Made by a program: the position numbers and the translations under genes. Below are positions 34,837-56,050 of a DNA stretch of 64,000 bases, piece by piece (positions within the stretch are counted from its first letter, which is position 1; each line of letters begins with the position of its first letter). The notes under the pieces are model-generated. The model was not told the DNA's origin. It did no database searches and was given only the letters and a program-made list of their open reading frames with translations. The DNA comes from Terriglobia bacterium (GTDB lineage: Bacteria > Acidobacteriota > Terriglobia > Acidiferrales > UBA7541), in NCBI GenBank assembly GCA_020073375.1, contig JAIQFG010000007.1, forward strand, positions 30,762 to 94,761, written 5' to 3'.

Positions 34837-35352
34837 TTACTTCGGCGCAACGATGGGAACCGCCGCTCCGGCAGCAGGTCTCCACTTCCCGTTCTCCTTC
34901 ACAAACAGCCGGAGGAAGGTGACTTCCGACGTGAAGGTGACCTTGCCATTGGCATCGACGCTCTTGAAACGCGTGTGATCCGTCGCCATTGCGAAGTTTC
35001 CGTAGACTGCCATTAACTTAAAATTGTCCGGATAAGGTCCGACGCCGGGAACGTGTGTAGGTATCCCCGCGGTTTGCGAAGCGACCATCTCTGCTTTGGT
35101 AGAAATCTTTCCAGTCGCACCGACCTCGAAAAACTGGTCGGCCCAATACTTGCTGCGGAATTCCACGCAATCCTTAATGTCCTTATGATAGGGACCGGCG
35201 CCGGAACTGCACAGCCACTGCTGATCGGCGTCCCAGAGTATTTTTTCCAAATCGGCCCACTTTTTGCCGCCTTTCTTCATGGTTTCTTGTCCAAGAGCCA
35301 ATGAGGATGCGGTCATGAGAGACGCCAGAAGTAATACACGAAATGTTGTCAT
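34837..35352 (-). CDS. Secreted NTF2-like (DUF4440-type) protein, family copy 0
   Basis: Signal peptide. WADLEKILWDADQQWLCSSGAGPYHKDIKDCVEFRSKYWADQFFEV...FKLMAVYGNFAMATDHTRFK...LRLFVKENGKWRPA is the same consensus as the six plus-strand paralogs. Confidence 0.8.
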   Translation of the reverse strand: MTTFRVLLLASLMTASSLALGQETMKKGGKKWADLEKILWDADQQWLCSSGAGPYHKDIKDCVEFRSKYWADQFFEVGATGKISTKAEMVASQTAGIPTHVPGVGPYPDNFKLMAVYGNFAMATDHTRFKSVDANGKVTFTSEVTFLRLFVKENGKWRPAAGAAVPIVAPK

Positions 35353-35645
35353 TGAACCCTCCGCGTGCAGTTGCCTGCTTTTTACTACGTCTTGCGCGCA
35401 AGGTCAACACTCGTGCTCCGGGCGGACAAGCTTCTGGCTTTTGAAAACTCGCAACCTCATTCGGCGCGGACAACCATTTCGCTACTTCAATTCGCGGCCT
35501 ATGCTTCGTCCGCAACTCGAAATAGAGCTAAGCCGACGAAAGCTTCCTGAAGCGAATATTCCTAAAGAGCCACCAAGCACGAATGTCACGAGGATTGACT
35601 ACGGCACTTCCGAGTGCTACTTTTCAGGACAATCGGAGAGTCGGA

Positions 35646-37430
35646 ATGTCCACTTCTGAACTATCGTTGCAAACTCTACCCGGTGGAATTGCACTCGACG
35701 GCCGCACGGGAGAAGTGCTGAAAAACGGATTCAAGATCAACCTGCCCGAACAATTGTTTCGTCTCCTGGCTCTCTTAGGAGCGCGTGTGGGTGACATTGT
35801 GACACGGGAAGAGATTCGAAGGAGCCTTTGGTCTGAGAACCTCGTCAATAACGTAGATGACAGTATCAATACGGCTATCAGAAGGTTGCGGCAATACCTG
35901 GAAGGCATGGTCGGGGCCCCTCTGCTTATCGAGACGGTGCCCGGGCGCGGGTATCGCTTTGTTGAGCCGGGGGCGAAGCCGAATACAATTCCGTCACTTC
36001 GCGAAAACGCGCCTGAGCTGGGGAGATGCCGCTTGGCTGCTTTGCCATTCGACCATTTGTCAGGCAATTCCGAAAAAAAATACTTCGCCGACAGTCTGAC
36101 GGATGCCGTGATTACGGCGCTCGCCAAAATCCCGGCACTCTCCGTCAAGCCGCGATGCCTTGTGATGGGCTACAAGCAATTGCGTATGGGACTTGCCGCG
36201 ACGGGCAGAAAACTAAAAGTGGACGCGGTGCTGCAGGGTTCGGTCGCGTATTTTGACGGCCGGTTGCGCGTAACAGTTCAACTCCTTCGCGTCGCGACAG
36301 AAGAGCACCTGTGGGCGGAGAGCTATATTTTTAGCTCCGGTGACATCCTGGACTTCCAAATGGATGTGGCCGGCAGGATTTCTACGCACGTGGCCGCCAA
36401 ATTGGTTCCGACCCGGGAAAGCCGGCCATCGTATGTCCCGCCGATACCCATCGCCCACGACGCGCATCTAAAGGCGCACCAAACGTTTAACGCCTTTACC
36501 AACGAAGGATTCTGGAATGCGCGCCGGTATTGGAAGGAAGCCATCCATCACGATCCCGATTATGCCCAGGCTTTCGCCGGCCTGGCCGAGTCCTACAACA
36601 TGCTGGGCATGACAGGGCTATTGCATGCGAAGGATGCCCTGGGTGAAGCGCAAGAAGCGGCAAAAAGAGCCATGGAGATTGACGATTCCCTGACCGAAGC
36701 CCACGCTGCGCTGGCCCACACGTATATGGTGGAATGGAATTGGAAGGCTGCTGCCCAGGAGTTCAGGCAAGCCCTGCAGCTGGACCCAAATTTAACGGTA
36801 GGGAACCCTTGCCACTACGTCGAATTCCTGATGGCTGCAGGCGAGCCGGACGAAGCCATCAAAGAGATCGAGCGAATCCGGTCGGCTCGACCGCTCGCAA
36901 ATTTTCTGGGCAACATAGTCGGATGGGCCTACTACGGAAACCGGAACTATGACCGGGCGCTTCGACAACACCATAACATTCTGAAGGACGACCCGAAATT
37001 TGGTTTGACTCACGTGATGCTTGGATTGGACTACGCCCAAAAGAAGCGATATCGAACTGCAATCGAACATTGTGGCAAGGTCACCTCCAGCGGCGGAACA
37101 CGGATTGCCCTCAACACATTGGGATACATTTATGCGGCGGCAGGCGAGAAACACTGCGCAAAGGAAATTCTAAGAGAATTAAAGCGGCTGCTTCGAACCG
37201 ACTACGCTTCCTGTTACGCCTGCGCTGCCATCTACGCCGGAATGGGCGAGGTGGATTTGGCGTTCGACTTTCTCAACCGAGCCTGCGAAGTCCATGATCC
37301 CGGATTGCTCTGGCTCAAATGGGACCCGCAACTGGACAACCTCCGGTTTGATCCGCGTTTCCAAGGTTTGTTGAATCGAATGGGGCTGCAGGCGGCCCTA
37401 CCCAACGGACGCCCCGTAGCTACCGTGTGA
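35646..37430 (+). CDS. Transcriptional regulator: OmpR/CadC-type winged helix + TolB-like region + TPR repeats
   Basis: ORF 35583..37430, ATG 35646 preferred. REEIRRSLWSENLVNNVDDSINTAIRRLRQYL...IETVPGRGYRF (trans_reg_C-type wHTH). RLAALPFDHLSGNSEKKYFADSLTDAVITAL. C-terminal TPR helices. Confidence 0.8.
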   Translation: MSTSELSLQTLPGGIALDGRTGEVLKNGFKINLPEQLFRLLALLGARVGDIVTREEIRRSLWSENLVNNVDDSINTAIRRLRQYLEGMVGAPLLIETVPGRGYRFVEPGAKPNTIPSLRENAPELGRCRLAALPFDHLSGNSEKKYFADSLTDAVITALAKIPALSVKPRCLVMGYKQLRMGLAATGRKLKVDAVLQGSVAYFDGRLRVTVQLLRVATEEHLWAESYIFSSGDILDFQMDVAGRISTHVAAKLVPTRESRPSYVPPIPIAHDAHLKAHQTFNAFTNEGFWNARRYWKEAIHHDPDYAQAFAGLAESYNMLGMTGLLHAKDALGEAQEAAKRAMEIDDSLTEAHAALAHTYMVEWNWKAAAQEFRQALQLDPNLTVGNPCHYVEFLMAAGEPDEAIKEIERIRSARPLANFLGNIVGWAYYGNRNYDRALRQHHNILKDDPKFGLTHVMLGLDYAQKKRYRTAIEHCGKVTSSGGTRIALNTLGYIYAAAGEKHCAKEILRELKRLLRTDYASCYACAAIYAGMGEVDLAFDFLNRACEVHDPGLLWLKWDPQLDNLRFDPRFQGLLNRMGLQAALPNGRPVATV

Positions 37431-37828: not shown

Positions 37829-37852
37829 ACGAGTGAAACTGACGAGTGAAAC
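37829..37852 (+). promoter_or_regulatory. 11-bp direct repeat upstream of the TonB receptor gene (candidate wHTH operator)
   Basis: ACGAGTGAAAC at 37829-37839 and again at 37842-37852, ~95 nt upstream of ATG 37946. Confidence 0.35.
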
Positions 37853-37945
37853 AAGAACACGACACTAGTTCAAGCAGGGAATTCCAGGCGAGGAAGCTGA
37901 TTTAGGTTGGGGGTGGCGCAGATCAGGAAGATCGGAGGCGAGGTT

Positions 37946-40900
37946 ATGAATTTTCTCTCGTATAGGAAATGGGTGTGGGCACTCAAACTCTTGATGTTCG
38001 CGGCGTTCCTCACTTTTTGTGTAGCACCACGTTTGTCCGCGCAAGTCACGGGAGGAACCATTTCGGGCACCGTTACCGATGCGTCGGGCGGGGCAATTCC
38101 CATGGTGGAAATCTCCATTCTCAATACGGCCACAGGCGTGGTCTCGACGGCTACGACGAGCGCCGAGGGCTTTTATTCGGTGCCGAACCTCTTGCCCGGG
38201 CCTTATCAGGTCACTGCCAAGAATGCAGGTTTTTCCACCGCGATCGTGAACGGCGTCACCTTGACCGTCGGCGCGCAACAAGCAGTGAACATCTCATTGA
38301 AAGTGGGAGAAACCTCGCAACAGGTGGAAGTGAGCGCATCCGCGGTTACGATCGACCTGGTGTCATCATCCATCAGCGCCGTGGTAACTGGGCCGACGGT
38401 TCGCGAATTGCCGCTAAACGGCCGTTCCTGGACGGACCTGGCGCAACTTCAACCGGGCCTCAACAACGTTACCACTCAGCCGCCTGCGACTTCCACGGAC
38501 CGGGCGTCGCGTGGTTGGGGAGCGATCTTGTCCATCTCCGGAGGGCGCGGCACATCGAATAATTATCGCCTCAACGGAATCAGCCTCAACGACTCCTTTA
38601 ACGCAGCGCCGGGCAGCTTTACGACCGGGAATCTGGGCGTGGATGCCATTGGCGAGTTTTCCGTATTAACGGGGAATTTTTCCGCTGAATATGGGAAGTC
38701 TTCAGGCGGGGTGATCAACGCCATCACCCGATCGGGGACCAATGAAATTCATGGGACTATTTTTGAGTTCATGCGCAACAAAGTTCTTGATGCCAAGGAC
38801 TTCTTTGTTGCGCCTGGCAAACCCATCCCGCCTTTCGTCCGAAATCAGTTTGGGGCCGCGGCAGGAGGTCCCATCCAGAAGGACAAGATGTTCGTTTTTG
38901 CCAATTACGAGGGATTACGCGAAGCTTTGTCCGGCGCGAAAACCATTAAAGTGCCCTCGGCTACGGCGCGCCAGGGCCGGCTATGCTCGGGTACCCCGGC
39001 AGCAAACGATCATTGCGCCACGACCACGCCAATCCCGTTAATACAACCTGTTGGCGGCCCGGTGTTAACCAGTCTTCCTGGCTTACCCTATGTGAATTTG
39101 TGGCCATCGCCCACTACGCTTATCTGCCCCACAGGTTATGCGCCCTGTGCCCCAAACTCGGGTAACACCGGTACAACCTCCGTCGTGCTCCCGGGACGCA
39201 CAAGCGAGAATTACTTTACGGTTCGAGTGGATCGAAAGTTCGGTTCGAATGACAGTCTGTTCGGCACGTACGTGCGCGACCGCCAGTCTCAAGGTGCGCA
39301 AGACAACCTGTCCGCGCTGGCTACCAGACGGCAGATGTTCCGGCAGACCTACACCGTAGAAGAAAGCCACGTGATCTCGCCAGCCATCATCAACGTCTTC
39401 CGGGTAGGTTTCCACCGGCAAGGCATCGATAATCCCAGCGGCGCAGATGCACTGAACCCGATTGCGGGGGACACCACGTTGGGGCTTTTGCCCAACCAGA
39501 GTATTGGGAGAATCGAGGTCCCTGGACTTGAAACCTTTGCCGGGGGAACTGCCCTCTATCAGCCGAATACGATTATCTGGAACTCGTATCAGGTGTATGA
39601 CGACCTCTTTATTACCAGGGGTATTCACGCCATTAAATTTGGAGTTGCCCTGGAAAAAGACCAGCGGAACACGAAAGGCCCCGGTGGATTTGCCGGCGGC
39701 AGGTCTATTTTTTCCAACTTTACCAACTTCATGCAGGGCAGTCCGAGTTCCCTGATCTTCAATGCAGGAGGCGGGGATCTCTCGGGCCATTTGAGTCAGT
39801 GGGTATATGGGGCATACGTGCAAGACGACATCCACCTGACGCCGCGCCTTACGTTGAACGCTGGGTTGCGCTACGAGTATGCGACGACCGTACACTCTAA
39901 GGGTACGGGATCGATCTCGAGTCTTCAGTGTCTCTCCTGCGAATTTCCGATCATCGATAGCCCGATCACTGCAAACCCCGTATTGGCCGCGCTGGTGGCG
40001 GCAGCGAACCCGAATCAAGTCTACGGGCCCATCATTCATCCATCCCGCTGGAACTGGGCGCCGCGCGTTGGTCTTGCGTGGGACCCGTTTGGCAATGGAA
40101 AAACTGCCATACGCGCCGCCTATGGGATCTACGACGTCCTTATCCAATTCCCCAATTACGGCAGCGCCCTTGCCAGCACCTGGCCGGGCCTGCAGTCCAA
40201 TAACAGCGGCACAGTCCCGGCGGCGTCCTGGCCAAAGGGTGGGGGCTTTGCTGGCGGCAATCCATTGGATCCGGCCGTGCTGAATACGAAGCGTGTCGAT
40301 TTCACGGAACAAAATCCTCCAACGAGCTACGCGATGCAATGGAACCTCAACATCCAACAGGAAATTACCAATACCCTGTCGGTCCAGGTCGGTTACGTGG
40401 GGACAAGGACCATCCACAACGTAAATCAAATGAATGACGGCAACATGCGATTACCAAATCTGGTGTCGGGACAACCCCTGTGGCCGTGCGGGCCCGGCGC
40501 CATCGTCGTGGTCAACCCCCAAGCCGATTGCCCATTATTCGCCAGCACACCCCCGAGCAATTTGCACGTTGGTCGAATGCCGATGCAAAACTATAACTCG
40601 AACGCCCTCTACGATGGCTTGCAAGTGGGCGTCACAAAAAATGTGAGCCATGGCCTGATGGTTAAGGGGTCTTACACCTTTTCCAAGAACATCGACACAG
40701 GTTCCGGGGCAGGCATAACCGACCCTTATGTTAATGCATTGGTAAACACCGTGTACTATTGGGATCCGGGACTGCGGCGCGCCCGGGCGGACACGGACAT
40801 GAGGCATAACCTGGTGATCAGCTATACCTACAACTTTCCCGACCCATCGGCAGACGTGGCCGGAGGGGTCTTGAAAGCCGTTGCCGGCGGCTGGCAGACG

Positions 40901-41413
40901 GGAGCGATCATCACAGCCCAGACCGGCCTGCCGTTTACGCCCCGAGTCGGTGGAAATGGGGCGGACTCCGTCGGCATGGGCGGCACGGATGCGATCAATT
41001 GGCCGGATCTTGCTAAGGGTTGTTCAAAATCAGACCTCGTCAACCATTCCGGCGACAGGCTCAATTACATCAATACCGCCTGCTATGCGTTTCCCGGAAC
41101 GGTTTCATACAATGGCAGCACCTGGCTGCGCACCGGCAACCTGGGTCGCAATTCAATCAACGGCCCGGGGCTGATGACCGTCAACTTCTCCCTGTTCAAG
41201 AACAACTACATCCACAGAATCTCGGAGACGGCGAATCTGCAGTTCCGATTCGAAGCCTTCAACGTCTTTAACCGTCCCAATTTCCTGGCGCCGGTCCCGG
41301 ATGACGAGCAACTCTTTGAAGCGACCGGTGGAGCAATTGCCGGCGCGGGCCGAATACAGGAAACGACAACCACAGCGCGGCAATTGCAGTTTGCGTTGAA
41401 GTTGATTTTTTAA
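37946..41413 (+). CDS. Oar-type TonB-dependent receptor with CarboxypepD_reg-like N-terminal domain
   Basis: ORF 37907..41413, ATG 37946 (GGAGG upstream; signal ...CVAPRLSAQ). GTISGTVTDASGGAIPMVEISILNTATG...YSVPNLLPGPYQV. Plug-like VRELPLNGRSWTDLAQLQPG. Long barrel region. Terminal RQLQFALKLIF. Confidence 0.85.
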   Translation: MNFLSYRKWVWALKLLMFAAFLTFCVAPRLSAQVTGGTISGTVTDASGGAIPMVEISILNTATGVVSTATTSAEGFYSVPNLLPGPYQVTAKNAGFSTAIVNGVTLTVGAQQAVNISLKVGETSQQVEVSASAVTIDLVSSSISAVVTGPTVRELPLNGRSWTDLAQLQPGLNNVTTQPPATSTDRASRGWGAILSISGGRGTSNNYRLNGISLNDSFNAAPGSFTTGNLGVDAIGEFSVLTGNFSAEYGKSSGGVINAITRSGTNEIHGTIFEFMRNKVLDAKDFFVAPGKPIPPFVRNQFGAAAGGPIQKDKMFVFANYEGLREALSGAKTIKVPSATARQGRLCSGTPAANDHCATTTPIPLIQPVGGPVLTSLPGLPYVNLWPSPTTLICPTGYAPCAPNSGNTGTTSVVLPGRTSENYFTVRVDRKFGSNDSLFGTYVRDRQSQGAQDNLSALATRRQMFRQTYTVEESHVISPAIINVFRVGFHRQGIDNPSGADALNPIAGDTTLGLLPNQSIGRIEVPGLETFAGGTALYQPNTIIWNSYQVYDDLFITRGIHAIKFGVALEKDQRNTKGPGGFAGGRSIFSNFTNFMQGSPSSLIFNAGGGDLSGHLSQWVYGAYVQDDIHLTPRLTLNAGLRYEYATTVHSKGTGSISSLQCLSCEFPIIDSPITANPVLAALVAAANPNQVYGPIIHPSRWNWAPRVGLAWDPFGNGKTAIRAAYGIYDVLIQFPNYGSALASTWPGLQSNNSGTVPAASWPKGGGFAGGNPLDPAVLNTKRVDFTEQNPPTSYAMQWNLNIQQEITNTLSVQVGYVGTRTIHNVNQMNDGNMRLPNLVSGQPLWPCGPGAIVVVNPQADCPLFASTPPSNLHVGRMPMQNYNSNALYDGLQVGVTKNVSHGLMVKGSYTFSKNIDTGSGAGITDPYVNALVNTVYYWDPGLRRARADTDMRHNLVISYTYNFPDPSADVAGGVLKAVAGGWQTGAIITAQTGLPFTPRVGGNGADSVGMGGTDAINWPDLAKGCSKSDLVNHSGDRLNYINTACYAFPGTVSYNGSTWLRTGNLGRNSINGPGLMTVNFSLFKNNYIHRISETANLQFRFEAFNVFNRPNFLAPVPDDEQLFEATGGAIAGAGRIQETTTTARQLQFALKLIF

Positions 41414-41506: not shown

Positions 41507-42466
41507 ATGAAAATGTCATGGGCGCTGATTCTAATTCTGTTCGCAGGCTGTGGGCCGGCCGGCAACGCGCCGCCGGCGGCGACTCAAACGGCGAGCAACG
41601 ACAACGCGGATTTGGAGAAAGTGCTTGAGGACGTCAATCACCAATGGCTGTGCAGCGGACCCTATCAGAAACCATATAAAGATTGTGTCGAATTTCGTAG
41701 TAAGTACTGGGTCGATCAATTCTTTGAGGTTGTATCCACTGGGGACCTGTTGAACAAGGAAGAGATGGTTGCCACACAAACGGCCGCTATTCCGTCCAAC
41801 CCGGCGCCGGGGACCGGACCATATCCCGACGCGTTCAAATTGAGGGCGGTGTACGGCGACTTCGCGATGGCCACGGATCATACGAATTTCAAGACTGCCG
41901 ACAAAAATGGGAAGCTCACCTTTACATCGAATTCCAAAGTGCTCAGGTTATTCGTAAAAGAGAATGGGGCCTGGAGACCTGCCGCGGCAGGGTTGGTCCC
42001 GATAATTTCTCCGCCGACTACTGCGCGTCCGAATAAGCATTCCGCTACTCCACACAAGAGTCCGGATGAGCAACTGGAAAAGGTACTCGCAGAGGCCGAT
42101 CGCGCCTGGATGGATTCCAGCGATCTAGACAAGAGGCTCGCCTATATCAATAAATTATTTACCGACCAGTGGTTCGAGATTCTCGGCTGGGACCCCACCA
42201 GAACTACTACTAAGTCCACGGTGTTAGAGGTCCTGCCGAAATTGGCTGGTACTAACAAGCCCGGTGAGGGCGTCGTTGCAGATCAATTTCAACTGCAAGC
42301 CGTTTTCGGAGACGTGGCGCTCGCGAGCGACCGCAGAACCAGAACTTGGACGGACGAAAAGGGCCACCTCGTGAAAACCCCTCACCGGACTCTCTTGGTT
42401 TTTGTGAAACAGAACGGTGAATGGAAATCCGCCGGGGCGTCGCTTACTCCAATCCTGACTCCGTAG
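41507..42466 (+). CDS. Lipoprotein with two tandem NTF2-like (DUF4440-type) domains, family copies 1 and 2
   Basis: ORF 41486..42466, with ATG 41507 giving MKMSWALILILFAGC (lipobox). Domain 1 has the Cys pair (HQWLCSGPYQKPYKDCVEF). Domain 2 (LEKVLAEADRAWMDSSD...LLVFVKQNGEWKSA) lacks it. Confidence 0.8.
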   Translation: MKMSWALILILFAGCGPAGNAPPAATQTASNDNADLEKVLEDVNHQWLCSGPYQKPYKDCVEFRSKYWVDQFFEVVSTGDLLNKEEMVATQTAAIPSNPAPGTGPYPDAFKLRAVYGDFAMATDHTNFKTADKNGKLTFTSNSKVLRLFVKENGAWRPAAAGLVPIISPPTTARPNKHSATPHKSPDEQLEKVLAEADRAWMDSSDLDKRLAYINKLFTDQWFEILGWDPTRTTTKSTVLEVLPKLAGTNKPGEGVVADQFQLQAVFGDVALASDRRTRTWTDEKGHLVKTPHRTLLVFVKQNGEWKSAGASLTPILTP

Positions 42467-42524: not shown

Positions 42525-43037
42525 ATGAGATATGCAATTGTGCTTTCGCTGCTCGTGCTTTCGAGTTTTCCAGCGCCCGCCTTTTCTCAACAATCGATGA
42601 AAATGGGCGATAAGGACTGGGTCGCCCTGGAGAAAGTTCTGGATGACGTTAACAATCAGTGGCTGTGTGCCGGGAAGTATTACAAGGCCAAGAGGCAGGA
42701 TTGTGTGGATTTCAGGGCCAACTTTTGGCCCGATCAATTTTTCGAGGTAGGCCAAACCGGGAAGACTCAGACCAAGGCAGAGATGGTCGCATCGCAATCG
42801 GCCGCTGCTGCGAAGAGTCCGGACGTCGTCCGCGACACCGGACCTAATCCACAGGAATTCAAGCTGATGTCGGTCTATGGTGACATCGCGCTCGCGACGG
42901 ACCACACTGTATTCAAAACTGCCGACGCCAGCAGCAACGTATCGGTCACGTCAGAAGCCAATGTTCTTAGAATGTTTGTGAAGGAGAATGGGAAATGGAG
43001 GCCCGCGGGGGCAGTGCTGATACCGATCAAGAAATAA
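42525..43037 (+). CDS. Secreted NTF2-like (DUF4440-type) protein, copy 3
   Basis: GAGGAG SD. Signal peptide. WVALEKVLDDVNNQWLCAGKYYKAKRQDCVDFRANFWPDQFFEV...LRMFVKENGKWRPA. Confidence 0.8.
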   Translation: MRYAIVLSLLVLSSFPAPAFSQQSMKMGDKDWVALEKVLDDVNNQWLCAGKYYKAKRQDCVDFRANFWPDQFFEVGQTGKTQTKAEMVASQSAAAAKSPDVVRDTGPNPQEFKLMSVYGDIALATDHTVFKTADASSNVSVTSEANVLRMFVKENGKWRPAGAVLIPIKK

Positions 43038-43757: not shown

Positions 43758-44276
43758 ATGAGAAATGTTTTGATTGCGGTCTTAATTGCGCTTTCCGCCC
43801 TCTCCATTCCAGCCATGGCTCAAGAGAAAGTGACTAAGGGCGACAAGAACTGGGCCGCTTTGGAAAAAGTTCTCGATGACGTTAATAATCAGTGGCTATG
43901 TGCGGCGTCGTATCACAAGAACAAGGCACAAGAGTGCGTAAATTTCCGCGCCCAGTATTGGGCCGATGAATTTTTCGAGATCTATCCTTCAGGACAAATT
44001 CAAACCAAGGCAGAAATGGTTGCTTCGCAATCGGCCGGCGCCTCTGCTCACCCTGATTCCGCCCCCGGTACGGGGCCTAATCCGCAGGAATTCAAATTGA
44101 TGGCAGTGTACGGCAACGTTGCGCTGGCGACCGATCACACTATTTTTAAATCGATCGACTCCGGCGGAAACCTCGCGGTGACTTCGGAAGCGCGGGTTCT
44201 CAGGATATTCGTGAAGGAAAACGGGAAGTGGAGGCCTGCCTCGGCGGCATTGGTTGGTATCGAAAAGCCCAAATAG
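43758..44276 (+). CDS. Secreted NTF2-like (DUF4440-type) protein, copy 5
   Basis: GAGGAG SD. The upstream region resembles that of 42525. WAALEKVLDDVNNQWLCAASYHKNKAQECVNFRAQYWADEFFEI...LRIFVKENGKWRPA. Confidence 0.8.
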   Translation: MRNVLIAVLIALSALSIPAMAQEKVTKGDKNWAALEKVLDDVNNQWLCAASYHKNKAQECVNFRAQYWADEFFEIYPSGQIQTKAEMVASQSAGASAHPDSAPGTGPNPQEFKLMAVYGNVALATDHTIFKSIDSGGNLAVTSEARVLRIFVKENGKWRPASAALVGIEKPK

Positions 44277-44323
44277 GGCGAGGCAAGGCGGCCTTGGGAA
44301 CTCGAAGATAAGAGGTGATTAAG

Positions 44324-45361
44324 ATGGCGAGACGCTTGCTGATTGCGTTGTCAATCCTCACGTTTTTCTTGACCGTAGCTCACGGGCAGGACTGGAATTT
44401 TATTGCTCGACTAAATCCCGCTTTAGATGAAATTGTTCCCGCCGATGCGAAAGTAGAGAAACTGGCCGATAGTTTTGGCTTCCTCGAAGGGCCTGTTTGG
44501 GTCCGCAAGGGTGGGTACCTTCTTTTTAGCGATATCCCGGCAAATGTAATTTACAAGTGGAGTCCCAATGATGGAAAAGTCTCAATTTTCCTTCCCTACA
44601 GCGGGTTTACCGGGACAGACGACACGAATGTCGGCATGCAGCTTAACAATGGACGCGCAATGGTCACACTGCTTGGCTCCAATGCAGTGACAGTGGATCC
44701 GCAGGGGCGAATTGTTTATTGCGCTCACGGAGATCATCAGGTCGTGCGATTGGAGGCGGACGGTCGCCGTACGGTTTTGGCAAGTGAATTCGAGGGGAAA
44801 CGACTCAACAGTCCTAACGACCTCATTTACAAATCCGATGGAACTCTTTACTTTACTGATCCCCCAGCAGGTTTTCGCGACGGAGATAAAGACTCGAAGA
44901 AGGAATTGCCATTCACGGGGATATTCATGCTGAAGGGCGGCAAACTCCAATTGATCAGCAAAGATCTGCGGCCGAACGGTCTCGCCTTCTCGCCTGACGA
45001 AAAATATATATATCTGGTAGATGGAACAGACGGCAAGAAGGCCCTTCGCCGTTTCGAAATGCAGCCGGATGATACCCTCACCAACGGCCAACTTTTTGTT
45101 GACATGACCTCTGATAAGTCGCCGGGAGGGCCAGATGGCATAAAAGTGGATCAAAGAGGCAACGTCTATTCCACAGGTCCGGGGGGAGTGTGGATTATGG
45201 CGCCAGATGGAAAACACCTGGGAACGATCATGACTACCGAACTCCCAGCGAATCTGGCATTCGGTGAAACGGATAACAAAACTCTCTTTCTCACAGCTCG
45301 AACTGGGCTTTATCGGATTCGCCTGAAGATCCCGGGGATACCACCTCCGGGGAATTCTTGA
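44324..45361 (+). CDS. Secreted SMP-30/gluconolactonase/LRE-like beta-propeller
   Basis: ORF from GTG 44315; ATG 44324 (MARRLLIALSIL) preferred. LLFSDIPANVIYKW, SPNDLIYKSDGTLYFTDPP, RPNGLAFSPDEKYIYLVD, PDGIKVDQRGNVY and PANLAFGETDNKTLFLTA. Confidence 0.8.
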   Translation: MARRLLIALSILTFFLTVAHGQDWNFIARLNPALDEIVPADAKVEKLADSFGFLEGPVWVRKGGYLLFSDIPANVIYKWSPNDGKVSIFLPYSGFTGTDDTNVGMQLNNGRAMVTLLGSNAVTVDPQGRIVYCAHGDHQVVRLEADGRRTVLASEFEGKRLNSPNDLIYKSDGTLYFTDPPAGFRDGDKDSKKELPFTGIFMLKGGKLQLISKDLRPNGLAFSPDEKYIYLVDGTDGKKALRRFEMQPDDTLTNGQLFVDMTSDKSPGGPDGIKVDQRGNVYSTGPGGVWIMAPDGKHLGTIMTTELPANLAFGETDNKTLFLTARTGLYRIRLKIPGIPPPGNS

Positions 45362-45513: not shown

Positions 45514-46761
45514 ATGAAGCGAAATCTATATGTTGGAGCGATATTTCTGGGGCTCTTGGCTGCGCTTGGAGTGGGATCGACTCTGCTTCAGAAGCGAGCC
45601 GCTGTCGAGGCCGCCGCGGTTCAGGCGCCGATGTTTGAAGTCGATCCGCTGTGGCCAAAGCCGTTGCCGAACCATTGGCTCATCGGAATGACCATCGGCG
45701 TGTCCGTTGACGCGCAGGACAACGTCTGGATCGTTCACCGCCAGGGTTCGCTGGAACCAGGCGAGCTGCACGCCGCCACGAACCCGCCGCTAGCTCAATG
45801 TTGCATGGCAGCTCCGCCGGTTCTGGAGTTTGATCCGGCGGGAAACCTGCTCCACCACTGGGGCGGACCCGGAAACGGCTACGATTGGCCGGATTCAAAC
45901 CACGGAATTACCATCGATTACAAAGGCAACGTCTGGATTGGCGGCAACGGCCGGGGCCGTCAGGCCGCACGGCCCGCGGGCGGAGCGCCCGACGAATCCG
46001 CAGCGTCCGCAACCCAGTCTTACCTCGACAATCAGGTTTTGAAATTTACGCAAGACGGCAACTTCCTGATGCAAATCGGCAAGCCCCACAGCAGCAAGGG
46101 CAGCAACGATATCGAAAATCTTCGTCTGCCTGCCAAAACGTTCATCGACAAGCAGACCAATGAAGTGTACGTCGCCGACGGTTACGGCAATCATCGCGTG
46201 ATCGTGTTCGACGCGGACACCGGCGCCTACAAGCGGCACTGGGGCGCCTATGGCCACAAGCCCGATGATACTGACCTCGGCAATTACAATCCGGATGCGC
46301 CGCCGGCCCAGCAGTTCCGCAACCCGGTGCATTGCGCCGATCTTTCGGTCGATCGCCTGGTGTATGTCTGTGATCGCGTGAACGACCGCATCCAGGTGTT
46401 CAAAACCGACGGAACCTTCGTAAAGGAAGGATTCATCGCCAAGCGCACGCTGGGCTCGGGTTCAGCGTGGGACATTGCGTTCTCCAAGGACCCACAGCAA
46501 AAATACATCTACCTGACCGATGGAGAGAACGATCGCATCCACATCCTGCTGCGCGATACGCTCGAAGTATTGACGACTTTCGGTGAGGGCGGACGCCAGC
46601 CGGGAGAATTCTACGGCCCGCACAGCATCGCCACCGATTCCAAAGGCAACATCTACGTAACGGAGACGTATCGCGGGCAGCGCGTTCAGAAATTCGTTTA
46701 CAAGGGATTGGGGCCGGTCACCAAGGAAGATCAAGGCGTTCTGTGGCCGACGAAGAAATAG
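45514..46761 (+). CDS. Secreted NHL-repeat propeller (paralog of 23398..24537)
   Basis: AGGAGG SD. MFEVDPLWPKPLPNHWLIGMTIGVSVDAQDNVWIVHRQG, NEVYVADGYGNHRVIVFD, LVYVCDRVNDRIQVF and GNIYVTETYRGQRVQKF. Confidence 0.8.
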   Translation: MKRNLYVGAIFLGLLAALGVGSTLLQKRAAVEAAAVQAPMFEVDPLWPKPLPNHWLIGMTIGVSVDAQDNVWIVHRQGSLEPGELHAATNPPLAQCCMAAPPVLEFDPAGNLLHHWGGPGNGYDWPDSNHGITIDYKGNVWIGGNGRGRQAARPAGGAPDESAASATQSYLDNQVLKFTQDGNFLMQIGKPHSSKGSNDIENLRLPAKTFIDKQTNEVYVADGYGNHRVIVFDADTGAYKRHWGAYGHKPDDTDLGNYNPDAPPAQQFRNPVHCADLSVDRLVYVCDRVNDRIQVFKTDGTFVKEGFIAKRTLGSGSAWDIAFSKDPQQKYIYLTDGENDRIHILLRDTLEVLTTFGEGGRQPGEFYGPHSIATDSKGNIYVTETYRGQRVQKFVYKGLGPVTKEDQGVLWPTKK

Positions 46762-46810: not shown

Positions 46811-47323
46811 ATGACAAAATTTCGCGTGCTGTTTGTGGTGGCCCTGATGGCCGTGGCGTCGTTCGCCCACGCACAGGATTCGATGAAGAAGGGCGACAAG
46901 GCCTGGACGGATTTGGAAAAGCAACTCGCGGACGTCAACGACTATTGGGTCTGCGCCCACAAGTACCACAAGAATCACGCCCAGGATTGCGTCGACGCCA
47001 AAAATGCGATTTGGCCCGCTGCATTCTTTGAAATCAGCATGCAAGGGGAAGTCACCGACAAGCAAGAAATGGTGAAGCGGCAGACCGCGACCGCCACGGC
47101 TCATCCGGTTTCTCCCGGTGACGCCGGGCCAAATCCTCAGGACTTCAAGTTGATGGCGGTCTACGGGAACGTCGCACTCGCGACGGATCGCACCGTTTTC
47201 AAAGCCGCCGACGACAGCGGCAAGATATCGGTAAGGGACGAGGCAACGGTGCTCCGAATGTTCGTCAAGCTGAACGGCAAGTGGGTGCCTGCAGGCGCCG
47301 CACTAGTGCCCGTGAAACCGTAA
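46811..47323 (+). CDS. Secreted NTF2-like (DUF4440-type) protein, copy 6
   Basis: ORF 46796..47323, ATG 46811 preceded by GGAGGA. WTDLEKQLADVNDYWVCAHKYHKNHAQDCVDAKNAIWPAAFFEI...LRMFVKLNGKWVPA. Confidence 0.8.
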   Translation: MTKFRVLFVVALMAVASFAHAQDSMKKGDKAWTDLEKQLADVNDYWVCAHKYHKNHAQDCVDAKNAIWPAAFFEISMQGEVTDKQEMVKRQTATATAHPVSPGDAGPNPQDFKLMAVYGNVALATDRTVFKAADDSGKISVRDEATVLRMFVKLNGKWVPAGAALVPVKP

Positions 47324-47429: not shown

Positions 47430-48626
47430 ATGAACATGAGGAAATCGGCGGCGCTACTCTCGGCGCTGGCAGCAGTTCTTGTCGGCGTCTGGTTTAGATC
47501 GAACGCCCAGAATGGCGCTGTAGCCATTCCCCTGAAATCGGTCCCGACTTTTTCCACCGCCAACATCGGGCGCCAAGGCCATTTTTATGTGGGAGGCAAG
47601 TGGGTGGGGGAGCCTGGCAAGGAAACCATGGATGGTGCGATGTATGTTGAAGTATGGGTGCCGAAGGATATCGGACATCCCTATCCGATCGTGTTCGTAA
47701 CCGGCGGAGGGGGGCAAGGTGCGTATAGCATGATTCAAACGCCGGACGGGCGTCCGGGTTGGGCCTATGATTTCGTCAACCAAGGCTATACCGTGTATTT
47801 GATGGACTATCCAGGGACAGGGCGTTCGGCGTATGTTCCCGGAGTTGACGGCACGGTGACACCTCCACGTTCAGGTCCACTGATGGAGGAGGTCTGGTCG
47901 GGTGGCCGTCCGGCCGCAACTCCGCAGAGCAGTTGGCCTCAGGCAAAAAAGTATACCCAGTGGCCTAGCGATGCGCCGAATAAGGGGAAAATGGGCGACC
48001 CGGTGTTCGACTATTTCGCGAAGACCGAACTCCAGGCGGTGGCCAGTCCAAATAACGCACAGATTATTACAGACACTGTTGTGCAATTATTGGATCTGAT
48101 CGGCCAGCCAGTCGTCCTGATGGTCAACTCTGGGGTCGCATCTTCCGGATGGGTGGCCGCAGATGCCCGGCCGAAACTGGTCAAGGGCATCCTCGCTGTC
48201 GAACCTGTCGCCCCGCCAGTCGAGAACGCGGAGAGGGGATCGACAGGGCCGGGACGTCTTTGGGGCGTGACCTCTCTTCCGATCCATTACGATCCTCCCA
48301 TCAAGGAGCCATCCGAATTGCGGCCTGTTCGTGAAGAGAAAGCGGATGGGCCAGACCTCATTCCATGCTGGATTCAGCAGGAACCCGCACACAAGCTCGT
48401 AAACTTGCAGGGTATCCCTGTCCTCGAAGTGTCCGGGGAGGCAAGCTACCACCGTCCGTACTCCCATTGCGTAGCCAAGTGGCTCAATCAGGCAGGTGTA
48501 AAGACCACTTATGTGAGGCTCGAGGATGTTGGCCTATCAGGCAACGGCCATCAAATGATGTCCGAAAAGAACAGCGCTGGTATCTCGAAGTATTTCATGA
48601 GCTGGCTCGATAAGAACGTTCACTGA
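47430..48626 (+). CDS. Exported ~400-aa alpha/beta-hydrolase-fold protein, paralog 1 of 3
   Basis: Signal/anchor MNMRKSAALLSALAAVLVGVWF. VPTFSTANIGRQGHFYVGGKWVGEPGKETMDGAMYVEVWVPK, elbow-like LMVNSGVASSGW and C-terminal VGLSGNGHQMMSEKNSAGISKYFMSWLDKNVH. Confidence 0.8.
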   Translation: MNMRKSAALLSALAAVLVGVWFRSNAQNGAVAIPLKSVPTFSTANIGRQGHFYVGGKWVGEPGKETMDGAMYVEVWVPKDIGHPYPIVFVTGGGGQGAYSMIQTPDGRPGWAYDFVNQGYTVYLMDYPGTGRSAYVPGVDGTVTPPRSGPLMEEVWSGGRPAATPQSSWPQAKKYTQWPSDAPNKGKMGDPVFDYFAKTELQAVASPNNAQIITDTVVQLLDLIGQPVVLMVNSGVASSGWVAADARPKLVKGILAVEPVAPPVENAERGSTGPGRLWGVTSLPIHYDPPIKEPSELRPVREEKADGPDLIPCWIQQEPAHKLVNLQGIPVLEVSGEASYHRPYSHCVAKWLNQAGVKTTYVRLEDVGLSGNGHQMMSEKNSAGISKYFMSWLDKNVH

Positions 48627-48719: not shown

Positions 48720-49316
48720 ATGATAAAGGTTCGCGTGGCGTTAATAATTGGGCTTATGGCCATTTCATGCATGGCCTCGGCTCAAGAAACTATGAAGAAA
48801 GGCGACAAAGCTTGGACAGAATTGGAAGCGACGCTTAGAGACGCTAATCTCAAATGGCTGTGCCAGGGGAAGTACTATAAGCCGAAAAGACAAGATTGCG
48901 TGGATTTGCGGGCCAAGTATTGGGACGATCAATTCTTCGAGATGAACCCGGGGGCCAGCGGCACGCAAACCAAAGCACAGATGGTCGAGGGGCAAACCGC
49001 GGGCGCCAAGACTTACCCAGACGTCGTGCGTGGTGAGGGACCGAATCCAACTGAGTTTACGTTAATGGCGGTCTACAACAACGGAACCTTCGCGATGGCG
49101 GTCGATCACACCTCATTCAAAATACGCTTGAACGCACAAGGACAACCTGACTTCGAACATGTGTCCCCAACTAATAAAACCGGCCACTGGTTCCTAGATG
49201 AAAGCGGCAAGCTGGCCGTGGTACGGGAAGTTACTTACGCCCGCGTATTTGTTAAGAAAAACGGGGAGTGGAGACCTGCGGTCGGTGCTTCATCTCCTCG
49301 TGCACCATCGAAGTAA
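48720..49316 (+). CDS. Secreted NTF2-like (DUF4440-type) protein, copy 7 (with ~25-aa insertion)
   Basis: GGAGG SD. WTELEATLRDANLKWLCQGKYYKPKRQDCVDLRAKYWDDQFFEM...FTLMAVYNNGTFAMAVDHTSFK + inserted IRLNAQGQPDFEHVSPTNKTGHWFLDESGK + YARVFVKKNGEWRPA. Confidence 0.8.
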   Translation: MIKVRVALIIGLMAISCMASAQETMKKGDKAWTELEATLRDANLKWLCQGKYYKPKRQDCVDLRAKYWDDQFFEMNPGASGTQTKAQMVEGQTAGAKTYPDVVRGEGPNPTEFTLMAVYNNGTFAMAVDHTSFKIRLNAQGQPDFEHVSPTNKTGHWFLDESGKLAVVREVTYARVFVKKNGEWRPAVGASSPRAPSK

Positions 49317-49475: not shown

Positions 49476-49835
49476 ATTCGCAGGATTGGGTATTTACAGC
49501 AGCTAAGGGAGGCGGAAGCTGCCCCGAGACCGCAAGCCAATGTGCCGAAGTTCGAGGTTGATCCTTTTTGGCCCAAGCCGCTCGGGAACATGTGGGTAAC
49601 GGGCGAAGTGGCCGGCACTTGCGTGGACGCTCAGGACCATGTGTTCATCGTGAATCGAAACAATTTGACACCGGACGAATTGAGAAATTCGCGGCCGTCA
49701 CCCGCGATCATCGAATTCGATCCCCAAGGCACTGTGGTCAATTCCTGGGGCGACAGGAAAATTCTCCCCACCGGAAGTCTCCATGGCTGCACGATCGGCG
49801 GCGAGGGTAGCAATTGGCGGGGACGATGCCATTAA
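49476..49835 (+). pseudogene. Truncated NHL-propeller gene (N-terminal third only, no signal peptide)
   Basis: LQQLREAEAAPRPQANVPKFEVDPFWPKPLGNMWVTGEVAGTCVDAQDHVFIVNRNN...IEFDPQGTVVNSWG...HGCTIGGEGSNW parallels residues ~25-135 of the 45514 protein. The frame is closed by TAG at 49473 upstream and stops at 49835. Confidence 0.65.
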
Positions 49836-49995
49836 TCCGGTCGGACGTGGCTACCCCTGAGGGCGCGGGAGCGAACGCACTCCCACCTGCCGCGAACTAG
49901 AATGCTTAGCATTTCGCGCTGTATTAGATCTCTTACGTATGGTTTGCACGGAATCTCAATATGAAAAATCAAGAGACACGAGGAAAGGGGATTTC

Positions 49996-51228
49996 ATGAC
50001 CTGGAAGAGACTGACCCCTGTACTCTCAGCGCTGGCTGTGGTTCTTGCGGGCGTCTGGTTTGCCATGAGATCTCATGCCGTCGGCGCTGTTCCCGGATCA
50101 TCGATCCCCACATTCTCCACTGCTGAAATCGGGAGGGAAGGGCATTTCTATGTAGGCGGCCATTACGTGGGCGAGCAGGGCAACGAAACGATGCACGGCG
50201 CCATGTACGTGGAAACGTGGGTACCCAAGAAAGTCCGGCATCCCTATCCGATCGTAATTATCGGCTTCAGTGTGGGACAGGACGAGTATGAATTTATGCA
50301 AACGCCTGACGGCCGGCCGGGCTGGGCATACGACTTTGTGAATCAGGGCTACACTATTTACATGATGGATTTTCCGGGGCTGGGGCGCGCGGGATTTATT
50401 CCCGGCGTGGACGGCGAGCCTACGCCCCAGCGCTCCACCAATCTGATCGAGGAGATCTGGACCGGCGGGCGATCACCCGCTTCGGAGTGGAGTAAAGAAC
50501 AGCATGTCCGCGAGAAGCGAGTACAAGAATTCGCAGACTGGCCGCAATGGAAAAAGGAAACGCAGTGGCCAGGGGAGTCGGGTAAAGGAAAAAAGGGCGA
50601 ACCGGCCTTCGACTACTACGCCAAAATGGAAGTGAACGGCGTGTCTAAGTTCGATTTGGAAGGCAAAGATACACGCGACGACCTCGTTCAGCTCCTGGAC
50701 ATGATCGGCACACCGGTCGTCCTGTTGCTCCACTCAGGTTCCGCGGTGGGTTGGCTGGTAGCGGACTCGCGGCCGCAACTCGTCAAAGCGATCATCGCGG
50801 CGGAACCGAACTCGCCTCCGATCATGAACGCAGAGCGGGGTGTGGCGGGGCCGGGAAATGTGTGGGGCTTGACGCGGACGTTCATTCACTATGATCCTCC
50901 AATCACTGAAGCTTCGGAATTGCTCCCTGTTCGCCAGGAGATAGCGGACGGCCCGGACCTTCTTCCGTGTTGGGTGCAGAGCGAACCCGCGCATAAGCTC
51001 GCCAATCTGAAGGCGATCCAAGTGTTGAACGTTACCGGGGAGGCGAGTTACCACCGCCCTTACGCTCACTGTGAAGCCAAGTGGCTCAATCAGGCGGGCG
51101 TAAAGACCACGTTTGTGAAACTCGAAGACGTTGGATTGTCCGGTAACGGGCACCAGATGATGTCGGAAAAGAACAGCGCGGAAATTGCGAGGTACTTCAT
51201 GGGCTGGCTCGACAAGAACGTCCAGTGA
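49996..51228 (+). CDS. Exported ~400-aa alpha/beta-hydrolase-fold protein, paralog 2 of 3
   Basis: ORF 49939..51228, ATG 49996 (MTWKRLTPVLSALAVVLAGVWF). IPTFSTAEIGREGHFYVGGHYVGEQGNETMHGAMYVETWVPK, LLLHSGSAVGW and VGLSGNGHQMMSEKNSAEIARYFMGWLDKNVQ. Confidence 0.8.
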   Translation: MTWKRLTPVLSALAVVLAGVWFAMRSHAVGAVPGSSIPTFSTAEIGREGHFYVGGHYVGEQGNETMHGAMYVETWVPKKVRHPYPIVIIGFSVGQDEYEFMQTPDGRPGWAYDFVNQGYTIYMMDFPGLGRAGFIPGVDGEPTPQRSTNLIEEIWTGGRSPASEWSKEQHVREKRVQEFADWPQWKKETQWPGESGKGKKGEPAFDYYAKMEVNGVSKFDLEGKDTRDDLVQLLDMIGTPVVLLLHSGSAVGWLVADSRPQLVKAIIAAEPNSPPIMNAERGVAGPGNVWGLTRTFIHYDPPITEASELLPVRQEIADGPDLLPCWVQSEPAHKLANLKAIQVLNVTGEASYHRPYAHCEAKWLNQAGVKTTFVKLEDVGLSGNGHQMMSEKNSAEIARYFMGWLDKNVQ

Positions 51229-51322
51229 GCGGGATGAACGTTCTATAGACTCGATGCAATCTCGCATCCTCCCAGCACGTGAAGAATTTGGAGAACGAAC
51301 GGATACCCCGAGAGGAGATGTC

Positions 51323-52552
51323 ATGAACAGAAAGACTTTGACGGTGGCACTCTCAGTAGTGGCTGGGGCTCTTGTCGTCGGCTACTTTGCAATGAGGTCG
51401 TATCCTGTCGGCGCTGCTCCTGGCGCATCGATTCCAACATTTTCCACCGCGGAGATTGGGCGCCAAGGCCACTTCTACATCGGCGGCAAATATGTTGGGG
51501 AGCCCGGCAACGAGACGATGCACGGCGCCATGTACGTGGAAACCTGGGTACCGAAAAACATCCGGCATCCCTATCCCGTCGTGTTCGTAACTGGAGGAGG
51601 CGGCCAGGGAGCTTACGCACTCATCCAGACCCCGGACGGACGGCCGGGCTGGGCATATGATTTTGTCAATCAGGGCTACACGGTGTACATGATGGATTAC
51701 CCGGGTAACGGTCGTTCGGCCTACGTTGTCGGCGTTGACGGCAAGGTCACGCCGCCTCGGTCGGGCCCGCTGATGGAAGAGGTCTGGTCCGCCGGGCGCT
51801 CCCCGGCATCGGAGTGGGCCAAACAGTTACATATTCAGGAACACCGGGACCAGGCCGGTGCGGAATGGCCGCAGTACAAGAAGCAAACGCAATGGCCCGG
51901 AGAGGGTCCGAACAAAGGCAAAATGGGCGATCCCGTTTTCGATTATTTCGCCAAGACCGAGCTCCAGAGCGCCGCAGTAGATCAGAACGTTACGGTGGAT
52001 TCCATCGAGCAACTGTTGGACGCCATCGCTCAGCCAGTGATCCTCGTCTTCCACTCCGGTACGGCATCCACTGGCTGGAGGGTGGCCGACGGCCGATCGC
52101 AGCTCGTGAAAGCCATCGTTGCGGCCGAGCCAGTTGGGCCGCCAGTTCAAAACGCGGAGCGTGGTTCATCCGGCCCAGGGCTGGTGTGGGGACTGAGCAA
52201 CGCTCCGTTACACTATGAGCCCGCGATCACGGATCCCGCGGCATTGAATCCCGTTCGCGAAGACAAGGCCGACGGGCCAGAATTGGTCCCTTGCTGGGTG
52301 CAGAAGGAACCCGCTCACAAGCTGACCAACCTGGCGAACATTCCCGTTCTCGATGTCGCGGGCGAGGGCAGCTATCATCGCCCGTGGGCACATTGCGTAG
52401 CCAAATGGCTCAATCAGGCTGGAGTCAAGACGACGTTCGTTGGGCTTGAGACAGTGGGACTCACCGGCAATGGCCACCAGTTCATGTCCGAAAAGAACAG
52501 CGCCGGAATCGCCAAGTTCTTCATGAGCTGGCTCGACAAAAACGTACACTGA
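51323..52552 (+). CDS. Exported ~400-aa alpha/beta-hydrolase-fold protein, paralog 3 of 3
   Basis: ORF 51185..52552, ATG 51323 preceded by GAGGAG (MNRKTLTVALSVVAGALVVGYF). IPTFSTAEIGRQGHFYIGGKYVGEPGNETMHGAMYVETWVPK, LVFHSGTASTGW and VGLTGNGHQFMSEKNSAGIAKFFMSWLDKNVH. Confidence 0.8.
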   Translation: MNRKTLTVALSVVAGALVVGYFAMRSYPVGAAPGASIPTFSTAEIGRQGHFYIGGKYVGEPGNETMHGAMYVETWVPKNIRHPYPVVFVTGGGGQGAYALIQTPDGRPGWAYDFVNQGYTVYMMDYPGNGRSAYVVGVDGKVTPPRSGPLMEEVWSAGRSPASEWAKQLHIQEHRDQAGAEWPQYKKQTQWPGEGPNKGKMGDPVFDYFAKTELQSAAVDQNVTVDSIEQLLDAIAQPVILVFHSGTASTGWRVADGRSQLVKAIVAAEPVGPPVQNAERGSSGPGLVWGLSNAPLHYEPAITDPAALNPVREDKADGPELVPCWVQKEPAHKLTNLANIPVLDVAGEGSYHRPWAHCVAKWLNQAGVKTTFVGLETVGLTGNGHQFMSEKNSAGIAKFFMSWLDKNVH

Positions 52553-56042: not shown

Positions 56043-56050
56043 ACAGAGAC

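Follow-up and report, generated by a model that had tools for sequence, protein, structure and literature searches.

A conserved operon of exported NTF2-like proteins, propellers and esterases next to an Oar-type TonB-dependent transporter in uncultured Terriglobia

A stretch of 64,000 nucleotides (nt) from a Terriglobia bacterium (contig JAIQFG010000007.1, positions 30,762 to 94,761 of the forward strand; here termed the window) was found to contain a locus in which seven genes for exported NTF2-like proteins (c0 to c6) stand among the genes for a winged-helix regulator, an Oar-type TonB-dependent transporter, an SGL propeller, an NHL propeller, three alpha/beta hydrolases (ABH1 to ABH3) and an MBL-fold hydrolase. 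The locus recurred on at least seven contigs of Ca. Acidoferrales/Terriglobia with gene order and strand kept and with protein identities of 45-90%. The reading that we favor, and that we regard as roughly an even call, is that of a conserved, lineage-restricted envelope uptake-and-breakdown operon of uncultured Terriglobia, in which the NTF2-like proteins bind the ligand or partner the enzymes.

When all six reading frames of the 64-kb window were translated and searched with a family hidden Markov model (HMM) made from family alignment A2, eight domains of approximately 140 residues each were found in seven open reading frames (ORFs) and zero elsewhere, with full-sequence E values of 5e-58 to 4e-111. 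Pairwise identity of the mature domains ranged from 31 to 69%, the lowest value being that of the second domain of c1. Pfam DUF4440 (PF14534) matched all seven proteins. The products c0 to c4 scored above the gathering score (E 1e-10 to 2e-6), and c5 and c6 reached 16-17 bits against a gathering score of 25.2, yet were 47-58% identical to members that passed. Export signals, judged by eye from the translations, were a signal peptide of the A-x-A|Q type in six proteins and the lipobox LFAG|C in c1. An earlier note on this DNA had claimed seven genes with eight copies of one domain and a Sec signal or lipobox on every copy, and both claims were borne out. The sequence motif that it quoted agreed with the consensus of alignment A1, in which the products align full-length, and the start codons that it gave at 41507, 43185 and 46811 yield proper N-terminal signals.

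The AlphaFold model of c4, based on a 60-sequence alignment, showed three helices and four long strands, with a predicted local distance difference test score (pLDDT) of 90.4 and a predicted template modeling score (pTM) of 0.80. Foldseek gave 263 matches in the PDB at E<=1e-3, and the top 50 listed were NTF2-like throughout. The matches included 2R4I, 3GZR, 1TP6, 3HX8, CaMKII hub domains, PhzA/B and a dioxygenase beta subunit, at identities of 9-19%. The model of c1 contained two cones (pLDDT 86.6, pTM 0.85) and gave 266 PDB matches at E<=1e-3, of which the top 50 listed were all NTF2-like; a pTM of 0.85 for a protein of two domains suggests that the cones have a defined mutual orientation. 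The tandem-NTF2 proteins TcpC (3UB1), Lsd19 (3RGA) and OrfG fitted c1 domain by domain, with template modeling (TM) scores of 0.2-0.3 over the full length (0.30 for Lsd19 in Foldseek). The NTF2-like fold predicted for the seven proteins is regarded as secure because every listed Foldseek match is NTF2-like, and the NTF2-like/DUF4440 assignment of the earlier note held in the Pfam HMM check as well as in the AlphaFold and Foldseek comparisons. With the DUF4440 structures 2R4I, 3GZR, 1TP6, 3HX8 and the CaMKII hub, the predicted folds share a cone of three helices and a curved sheet of four to five strands, at a Foldseek probability of 1.0 and a TM score of about 0.6-0.77 on the target. In contrast to those structures, the family in the window is exported, carries a Cys pair in the domains termed class A below and has an invariant E/K/D/K/W/W set. 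No hint of function came from the solved relatives among the listed Foldseek PDB matches. The HMMs of catalytic NTF2 families gave SnoaL_3 as their sole match, to the second domain of c1 and below threshold (20.9 against 22 bits).

A word-indexed search with c4 found 438 relatives of 141-194 residues, nearly all of them unnamed metagenome proteins. When 1.84 billion cluster representatives were searched exhaustively with a profile, 207 had E<=1e-3, and 30 of these reached E<=1e-30. As there are just 207 representatives, the proteins constitute a narrow branch of DUF4440 and not the family at large. A scan of genomes gave 61 loci (related loci are referred to below by L numbers), nearly all in metagenome-assembled genomes of Acidobacteriota, often five or six per genome, from Ca. 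Acidoferrales/Acidiferrales, other Terriglobia, subdivision 13 and Bryobacteraceae. Clustering of 132 domains from 64 sequences yielded class A, with a conserved Cys pair (58 members; c0, the first domain of c1, c2, c4, c5 and c6), class B, which is Cys-free (41 members; c3), and the smaller groups b1 (the second domain of c1), g1, g5 and g7. The residues E36, W46, K84, D126, K153 and W158 (c4 numbering) were kept across all six subgroups, down to identities of 25-30%. The class-A Cys pair probably forms a periplasmic disulfide linking helix 1 to helix 2. The long matches to the family were tandem NTF2 repeats, in two- to four-domain forms, and one cupin fusion.

The canonical gene order, best seen in L066 and L001, is regulator, transporter, c1, c2, c3, SGL, NHL, c4, SGL, NHL, c5, 400-residue hydrolase and MBL, and variants of it were found in L002/L013 (one contig), L003, L065 and L067. 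A smaller core, consisting of a class-B NTF2 gene, an NHL gene and a class-A NTF2 gene of the c5 type, was present in approximately 20 loci, its NHL product being approximately 90% identical to that of the window. In at least 12 loci an ortholog of c3, approximately 70-75% identical, came before the NHL gene, and in at least 15 an ortholog of c5 (79-88% identity) lay 3' of an NHL gene of approximately 90% identity. On the same strand and within 300 nt, an NTF2 gene accompanied 27 of 37 close NHL matches and 11 of 14 SGL matches. Look-ups anchored on NHL in two long contigs also showed flanking NTF2 genes, which guards against circularity. The ratio of NTF2 domains to enzymes was 6:6 in L001, 4:4 in L014 and L020, and 2:2 in L008 and L010-L012; adjacency and these counts are approximate because some ORFs are frameshifted and L002 overlaps L013. 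Another recurring string was transporter, SGL, SGL, g5, g7, NHL, class B, NHL and class A (L014, L020, L021 and L034). The tightest linkage of the NTF2 family is to the NHL propeller and not to the receptor. The earlier note had staked its proposal in advance on conserved co-occurrence in relatives, and co-occurrence with an Oar-type receptor, SGL, NHL, the approximately 400-residue hydrolase and MBL was found in the synteny survey.

The locus in the window is a variant of this canonical operon that has been rearranged and has partly decayed (Table 1). It has one SGL gene and one NHL gene fewer, an NHL remnant after c6 and three hydrolases instead of one, and c0 and the MBL gene have been relocated to the other side of the regulator. 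By blastx, the remnant was 39-42% identical to residues ~22-166 of NHL proteins (E 6e-18), and its presence points to the recent loss of an NTF2-NHL module. The earlier note had spoken of an expansion of one domain. The eight copies are real; as the locus is a variant of the canonical operon, they are mostly an inherited six-domain layout to which the extra copies c0 and c6 have been added. The neighboring genes were as that note had listed them (Pfam scan; the MBL gene is co-directional with c0), but the gaps are not uniformly short: 476 nt lie before the receptor gene, and the 622 nt between c6 and the second hydrolase hold the NHL pseudogene. Scans of the window for tRNA genes and Rfam families found nothing.

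Table 1. Features of the locus in the window, in order of position
Feature	Position	Strand	Type	Further description
MBL-fold hydrolase	33518..34654	-	exported hydrolase	HxHxDH intact (HWHGDH); downstream of c0; Lactamase_B E 5e-13
c0	34837-35352	-	class-A NTF2-like DUF4440	signal peptide; divergent from main operon; Pfam E 2e-7, family HMM E 2e-74
Regulator	35583..37430, likely start 35646	+	wHTH-TPR regulator	OmpR/PhoB-type winged helix and TPR, without receiver; Trans_reg_C E 1e-14
Transporter	37907..41413	+	Oar-type TonB-dependent transporter	CarboxypepD_reg E 4e-20, Plug E 2e-5, OMP_b-brl_4 E 1e-166
c1	41507-42466	+	tandem NTF2-like lipoprotein	domains ~41507-42010 (class A) and ~42059-42460 (subgroup b1)
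c2	42525-43037	+	class-A NTF2-like	signal peptide
c3	43185-43673	+	class-B NTF2-like (without Cys pair)	signal peptide
c4	43758-44276	+	class-A NTF2-like	signal peptide; copy used for the single-domain AlphaFold model
SGL propeller	44315..45361	+	exported SMP-30/gluconolactonase-like	six-bladed; Pfam SGL (PF08450) E 1e-39
NHL propeller	45514..46761	+	PAL-like propeller	six-bladed; N-terminal signal or anchor; Pfam NHL
c5	46811-47323	+	class-A NTF2-like	3' of NHL gene
ABH1	47430..48626	+	exported serine esterase	esterase-713/SulE type
c6	48720-49316	+	class-A NTF2-like	25-residue insertion
NHL remnant	49494-49823	+	pseudogene	N-terminal ~120 residues alone, ends in stop
ABH2	49996..51228	+	esterase paralog	64% identical to ABH1; triad retained, oxyanion loop diverged
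ABH3	51323..52552	+	esterase paralog	70% identical to ABH1

Several other genes were observed next to family members in the related loci. A protein of 540-570 residues that combines CarboxypepD_reg, a CxxCH heme motif and a Vgb-lyase-type propeller was often encoded directly upstream of a class-B gene (L006, L008 at 6330-8051, L010-L012, L028 and L043), and is absent from the window. HupE_UreJ_2 membrane proteins, which resemble Ni/Co permeases, were encoded beside family members or the operon in L062 (5277-6018) and L066 (1484-2926), and could be a candidate inner-membrane component or the hint of a link to metals. A trio formed by Amidohydro_2, a 304-residue protein and a sodium:dicarboxylate symporter adjoined related genes in L013 (12333-15511) and L026 (1-2462) and might take up a product of the dicarboxylate type. 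Lone class-B copies (L036-L049) sat amid genes for a two-component system, for an M13 peptidase and for a desaturase, and a Vgb-type propeller was encoded 8 kb off. The loci L011, L021 and L055, labeled Verrucomicrobiia/Saccharimonadales, carried the same module at approximately 90% NHL identity and are judged to be mis-binned acidobacterial contigs.

Orthologs of the regulator, 60-69% identical, were found upstream of the receptor in L001, L002, L065, L066 and L067. The transporter covered 838 of the 838 positions of the OMP_b-brl_4 profile, and no close solved relative was found when it was compared with the PDB. The lipobox form of the tandem-NTF2 protein was encoded directly 3' of the transporter on six of six independent contigs (the window, L001, L002/L013, L065, L066 and L067), at a distance of 72-93 nt. 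In nearly all relatives of c1 with at least 63% identity, the signal ended in L-x-[GSA]-C. The more distant two-domain relatives had an ordinary A-x-A|Q site instead of the lipobox, and on the contigs examined these non-lipobox forms were never encoded directly after the transporter. No SusD homology was detected in c1, for which Pfam gave DUF4440 and SnoaL_3 alone. Lipoprotein lids of TonB transporters other than SusD have been described (bioRxiv 10.1101/2023.03.17.533168; PMC10404256), and none of the six lid families of Price et al. is NTF2-like (bioRxiv 10.1101/2023.03.17.533168). The locus resembles SusC/SusD and BtuB-BtuG in having a large transporter of the CarboxypepD_reg type, a lipoprotein gene next to it and cargo-processing enzymes downstream. 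It differs from them in that c1 is a tandem NTF2 protein, whereas SusD is TPR-like and helical and BtuG is a propeller, and in that the arrangement is known here from genes.

The NHL propeller was conserved to an unusual degree. Its homologs numbered at least 8000, and the best 120 clusters (90%-identity clusters from many soil metagenomes) were all 85-95% identical to it; its operon neighbors were far less conserved (receptor approximately 57%, regulator approximately 60%). An identical NHL protein was present on the soil-metagenome contig ERZ27248265 of the ENA. Its PDB sequence matches were TRIM-type NHL domains and PAL (3FVZ, E 1.4e-8). A rat PAL sequence aligned across the whole NHL propeller with an E value of 8e-12, which we treat as a lead. 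The residues that we presume to be its zinc ligands and catalytic Tyr and Arg (Arg533, His585, Tyr654, His690, Arg706 and His786) fell on positions conserved in all NHL paralogs, an unconfirmed match in which His690 was offset by one position. PAL is a six-bladed Zn enzyme (review), and it and the NHL protein of the window are both six-bladed NHL propellers. They differ in that identity is approximately 24%, one His is shifted by one and the operon has no PHM copper monooxygenase partner; a PHM-type copper monooxygenase was not found among the operon products and the flanking window ORFs scanned. Approximately 10 kb upstream there is another NHL paralog (46% identity) that has the PAL-like residues as well, in a stretch with ORFs at 23173-24537 (+), 24755-27100 (-), 27303-28751 (-) and 29011-29499 (-), where its neighbors are a molybdopterin hydroxylase subunit, a seven-bladed lactonase-type propeller and a lipocalin-like protein.

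The SGL propeller was closest to exported gluconolactonases (PDB 3E5Z, E 6e-39; 3DR2, E 2e-34). Two other assignments of the propellers were tried and rejected. A six-bladed dehydrogenase of the pyrroloquinoline quinone/lanthanide type was considered (lead: bioRxiv 10.64898/2026.07.10.737718), and neither NHL nor SGL had a GSDH-type Pfam match or a PDB match to sGDH/PDH. Membership in the scytonemin families ScyE/ScyF was set aside with scores of 79.8 against 350 bits for NHL and ScyF and 25.2 against 80 bits for SGL and the ScyE family.

The three hydrolases, each of approximately 400 residues, were 64-70% identical to one another. ABH1 matched the PDB entries 1QLW (E 4e-14), 4Q34 and SulE 8GOL/7Y0L (E 3e-12; PMC10356948). 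Glu230 and His298 of 1QLW aligned with a Glu and a His conserved in all three paralogs, and the nucleophile (Ser206 in 1QLW) was placed in the motif H/N-S-G-x-A by means of 4Q34 and the alignment of the paralogs. Like esterase 713 of Alcaligenes (1QLW) and SulE, the hydrolases are exported esterases of the alpha/beta fold with aligning positions of the Ser-Glu-His triad. The relationship is distant (E 1e-12 to 4e-14), the known enzymes have H-S-Q-S-G in contrast to the H/N-S-G-x-A found here, and the hydrolases of the window carry an extra insertion of approximately 80 residues. The nearest NCBIfam and PDB relatives of the MBL-fold hydrolase were, weakly, the MBL domains of ComEC, and homologs with 45-49% identity recurred in the related loci. 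All enzymes of the locus carry export signals. That none of them depends on ATP or on nicotinamide cofactors is in keeping with a periplasmic or extracellular site of action.

In the uptake-and-breakdown reading, the Oar-type transporter would take up a scarce organic compound through the outer membrane, with the tandem-NTF2 lipoprotein c1 as its capture or lid partner. The compound would then be dismantled in the periplasm through cleavage of ester, lactone and C-N bonds. The soluble NTF2-like proteins, at roughly one domain per enzyme, may hold a hydrophobic or labile substrate and its intermediates in the pockets of their cones before handing them on to the adjacently encoded enzyme. The universal Asp, together with the Glu, two Lys and two Trp, might bind a chemical handle shared by these compounds or carry out a simple acid/base step. 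There are precedents for a part of this proposal. The exported NTF2-like families DUF3828, DUF3887 and DUF4878 have been proposed to be non-catalytic ligand binders with operon-linked hydrolases (Eberhardt et al. 2013, PMC3924330), and DUF4440 is known to be fused to, or to co-occur with, alpha/beta hydrolases (PMC3924330). Those families, too, are NTF2-like domains that are secreted or carry a lipid anchor, occur singly or in tandem and are operon-linked to hydrolases; they are different Pfam families from another phylum, whereas here propellers and esterases of the esterase-713 type stand behind a TonB transporter. The favored reading is in line with that publication, in which exported NTF2-like DUFs are seen as binding ligands. 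Of the envelope pathway that the earlier note had suggested, the fold, the export signals and the conserved co-occurrence stand; import, ligand binding, hand-off and the class of substrate are what we infer.

Several results weigh against this reading. The Pfam scan found no inner-membrane transporter and no cytoplasmic enzyme in the operon, and a symporter of the SDF type was nearby in only two related loci, so that for this locus the uptake would end in the periplasm. Transporters of the Oar type can also export protein, as Oar itself does with a protease (PMC6434023). The window has eight NTF2 domains for six enzymes, and the 1:1 ratio is approximate. No fusion of an NTF2 domain to NHL, SGL or an esterase was found among the listed homologs and representatives, and there is thus no Rosetta-stone support for a physical partnership. 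The comparison with the active site of PAL is tentative. In a scan for promoters and terminators between 34000 and 53500, the counts equaled the expectation from shuffled sequence, which leaves gene spacing and synteny as the basis of the operon structure.

The alternative that survives best is that the NTF2-like proteins are dedicated partners of the propellers and hydrolases, as subunits, periplasmic chaperones or inhibitors, and do not handle small molecules; we consider it doubtful, while giving it serious weight. NTF2 folds are used for assembly in the beta subunit of Rieske dioxygenases and in the CaMKII hub, and both kinds of structure are among the Foldseek neighbors. The complete operons have approximately one NTF2 domain per enzyme, with the fixed adjacency of class B, NHL and class A, and proteins of the c5 type are conserved at 79-88% beside an NHL propeller conserved at 85-95%. 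The occurrence of two- to four-domain tandems, together with the predicted packing between the domains of c1 (pTM 0.85), suggests a tendency to self-association. Exported NTF2 domains, moreover, are usually held to be non-catalytic (PMC3924330). In contrast, the lack of an enzyme fusion among the listed homologs and representatives argues against such a partnership as well. For 73 of the 132 domains there was no enzyme of the locus type within 300 nt, and the lone class-B copies (L036-L049) stand in unrelated contexts. The Asp/Glu/Lys/Trp set kept in all subgroups would also be more typical of a ligand pocket.

A second alternative reverses the direction, the Oar-type transporter releasing the NTF2-like proteins, the enzymes or both, and an environmental polymer or toxin being degraded outside the cell. 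To our knowledge just one Oar-type transporter exports and most TonB transporters import, and we hold this alternative to be quite unlikely. The receptor was a full-length match to the Oar-type barrel (E 1e-166), the operon is without an inner-membrane permease or cytoplasmic catabolic enzyme, and all candidates for cargo are Sec-exported, as this alternative would have it. The Oar protein of Myxococcus xanthus is necessary for secreting the protease PopC (PMC6434023). The receptor of the window is of the same transporter family and has the same domain order, and differs in its setting: the Myxococcus protein exports a protease and has no linked NTF2 or propeller genes. A lipoprotein encoded right after the receptor fits the capture or lid logic of import systems instead (PMC10404256), and the NTF2-NHL-NTF2 core was found in many loci that have no transporter.

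It is very unlikely that the locus makes or modifies an envelope or secreted metabolite, in the manner of the late periplasmic steps of scytonemin formation with their propellers ScyD, ScyE and ScyF. In its favor, NHL scored 80 bits against ScyF in NCBIfam and SGL 25 bits against the ScyD/ScyE family, both weak similarities, and cyclases and epoxide hydrolases with the NTF2 fold, Lsd19 (3RGA) for one, act in biosynthesis. These scores are far under the respective curated cut-offs (350 and 80 bits), core genes (for a polyketide synthase, a nonribosomal peptide synthetase or equivalents of ScyA-C) were not found in the operon, and a TonB transporter with three esterases fits catabolism better. 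A chance gathering of duplicated paralogs among unrelated exported proteins with no common function is barely credible: many other exported propellers and hydrolases do occur in the wider window, such genes being common in the genome, and the order of modules is shuffled between genomes, but the same gene set, strand and order on at least seven contigs at 45-90% identity nearly refutes it, and the NHL-anchored look-ups recovered the NTF2 neighbors. Systems of siderophore esterase, phytate or phosphoester, toxin-immunity and antibiotic-inactivation types were also considered and rejected; there were no Fur or extracytoplasmic function (ECF)-sigma elements and no toxin-delivery domains, and the enzymes are Sec-signaled.

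The components and the general kind of system are known, both as TonB loci with a lipoprotein and exported enzymes and as exported NTF2-like proteins with hydrolases. The earlier note had not recognized a described system of this composition, and our literature search likewise found no such system. Within the literature searched, the composition itself, an NTF2 lipoprotein in the lid position, the pairing of classes A and B around a PAL-like propeller and the restriction to soil Acidobacteria have not been described. Within the uptake-and-breakdown reading, a more specific version would be an acidobacterial utilisome for a soil-derived substrate, in which an NTF2 lipoprotein lid takes the place of SusD, each enzyme receives its substrate from a cognate NTF2-like protein and the NHL propeller is a PAL-like C-N/C-O lyase. 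We think this version unlikely; if true, the lid family would be new, exported NTF2 domains would gain a new role, and bacterial PAL homologs would have their first function.

In acid soils, Ca. Acidoferrales and their relatives in Terriglobia rank with the most abundant of the uncultured bacteria (PMC7980381), and the operon, conserved across many such soil genomes, is built almost wholly of proteins without an assigned function. If the uptake-and-breakdown reading is right, the operon would be a substrate-utilization system outside the polysaccharide utilization locus (PUL) model of Bacteroidota, with a new family of transporter-associated lipoproteins, and would provide a first handle on the roles of exported DUF4440 proteins and of bacterial PAL-like propellers. 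The relatives of esterase 713 and SulE, like the lactonase-like propeller, could also be relevant to how xenobiotics or plant metabolites are degraded. If the NTF2-like proteins are enzyme subunits or inhibitors instead, this would also be a new periplasmic use of the fold.

Outside the locus, an IS630-type transposase at 29922-30937 (-) was found to be split into a helix-turn-helix (HTH) ORF (30410-30937) and a DDE_3 ORF (29922-30359), and lies upstream of the MBL gene, within 4 kb of sparsely coding sequence whose G+C content is lower (~0.52). The window is unusually rich in exported beta-propellers. A 1618-residue exported protein similar to glyoxal oxidase/galactose oxidase (Kelch, GO-like E-set, Laminin_G_3 and Big_2) is encoded at 3066-7922 (-), and a separate Kelch propeller at 17984-19081 (+). 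On the other side of the locus, at 52788-58051 (-), genes for a distant GH123-like protein, a GDSL lipase/acylhydrolase and a carbamoyltransferase are followed by sugar-modifying genes, in what looks like a separate envelope-polysaccharide cluster.

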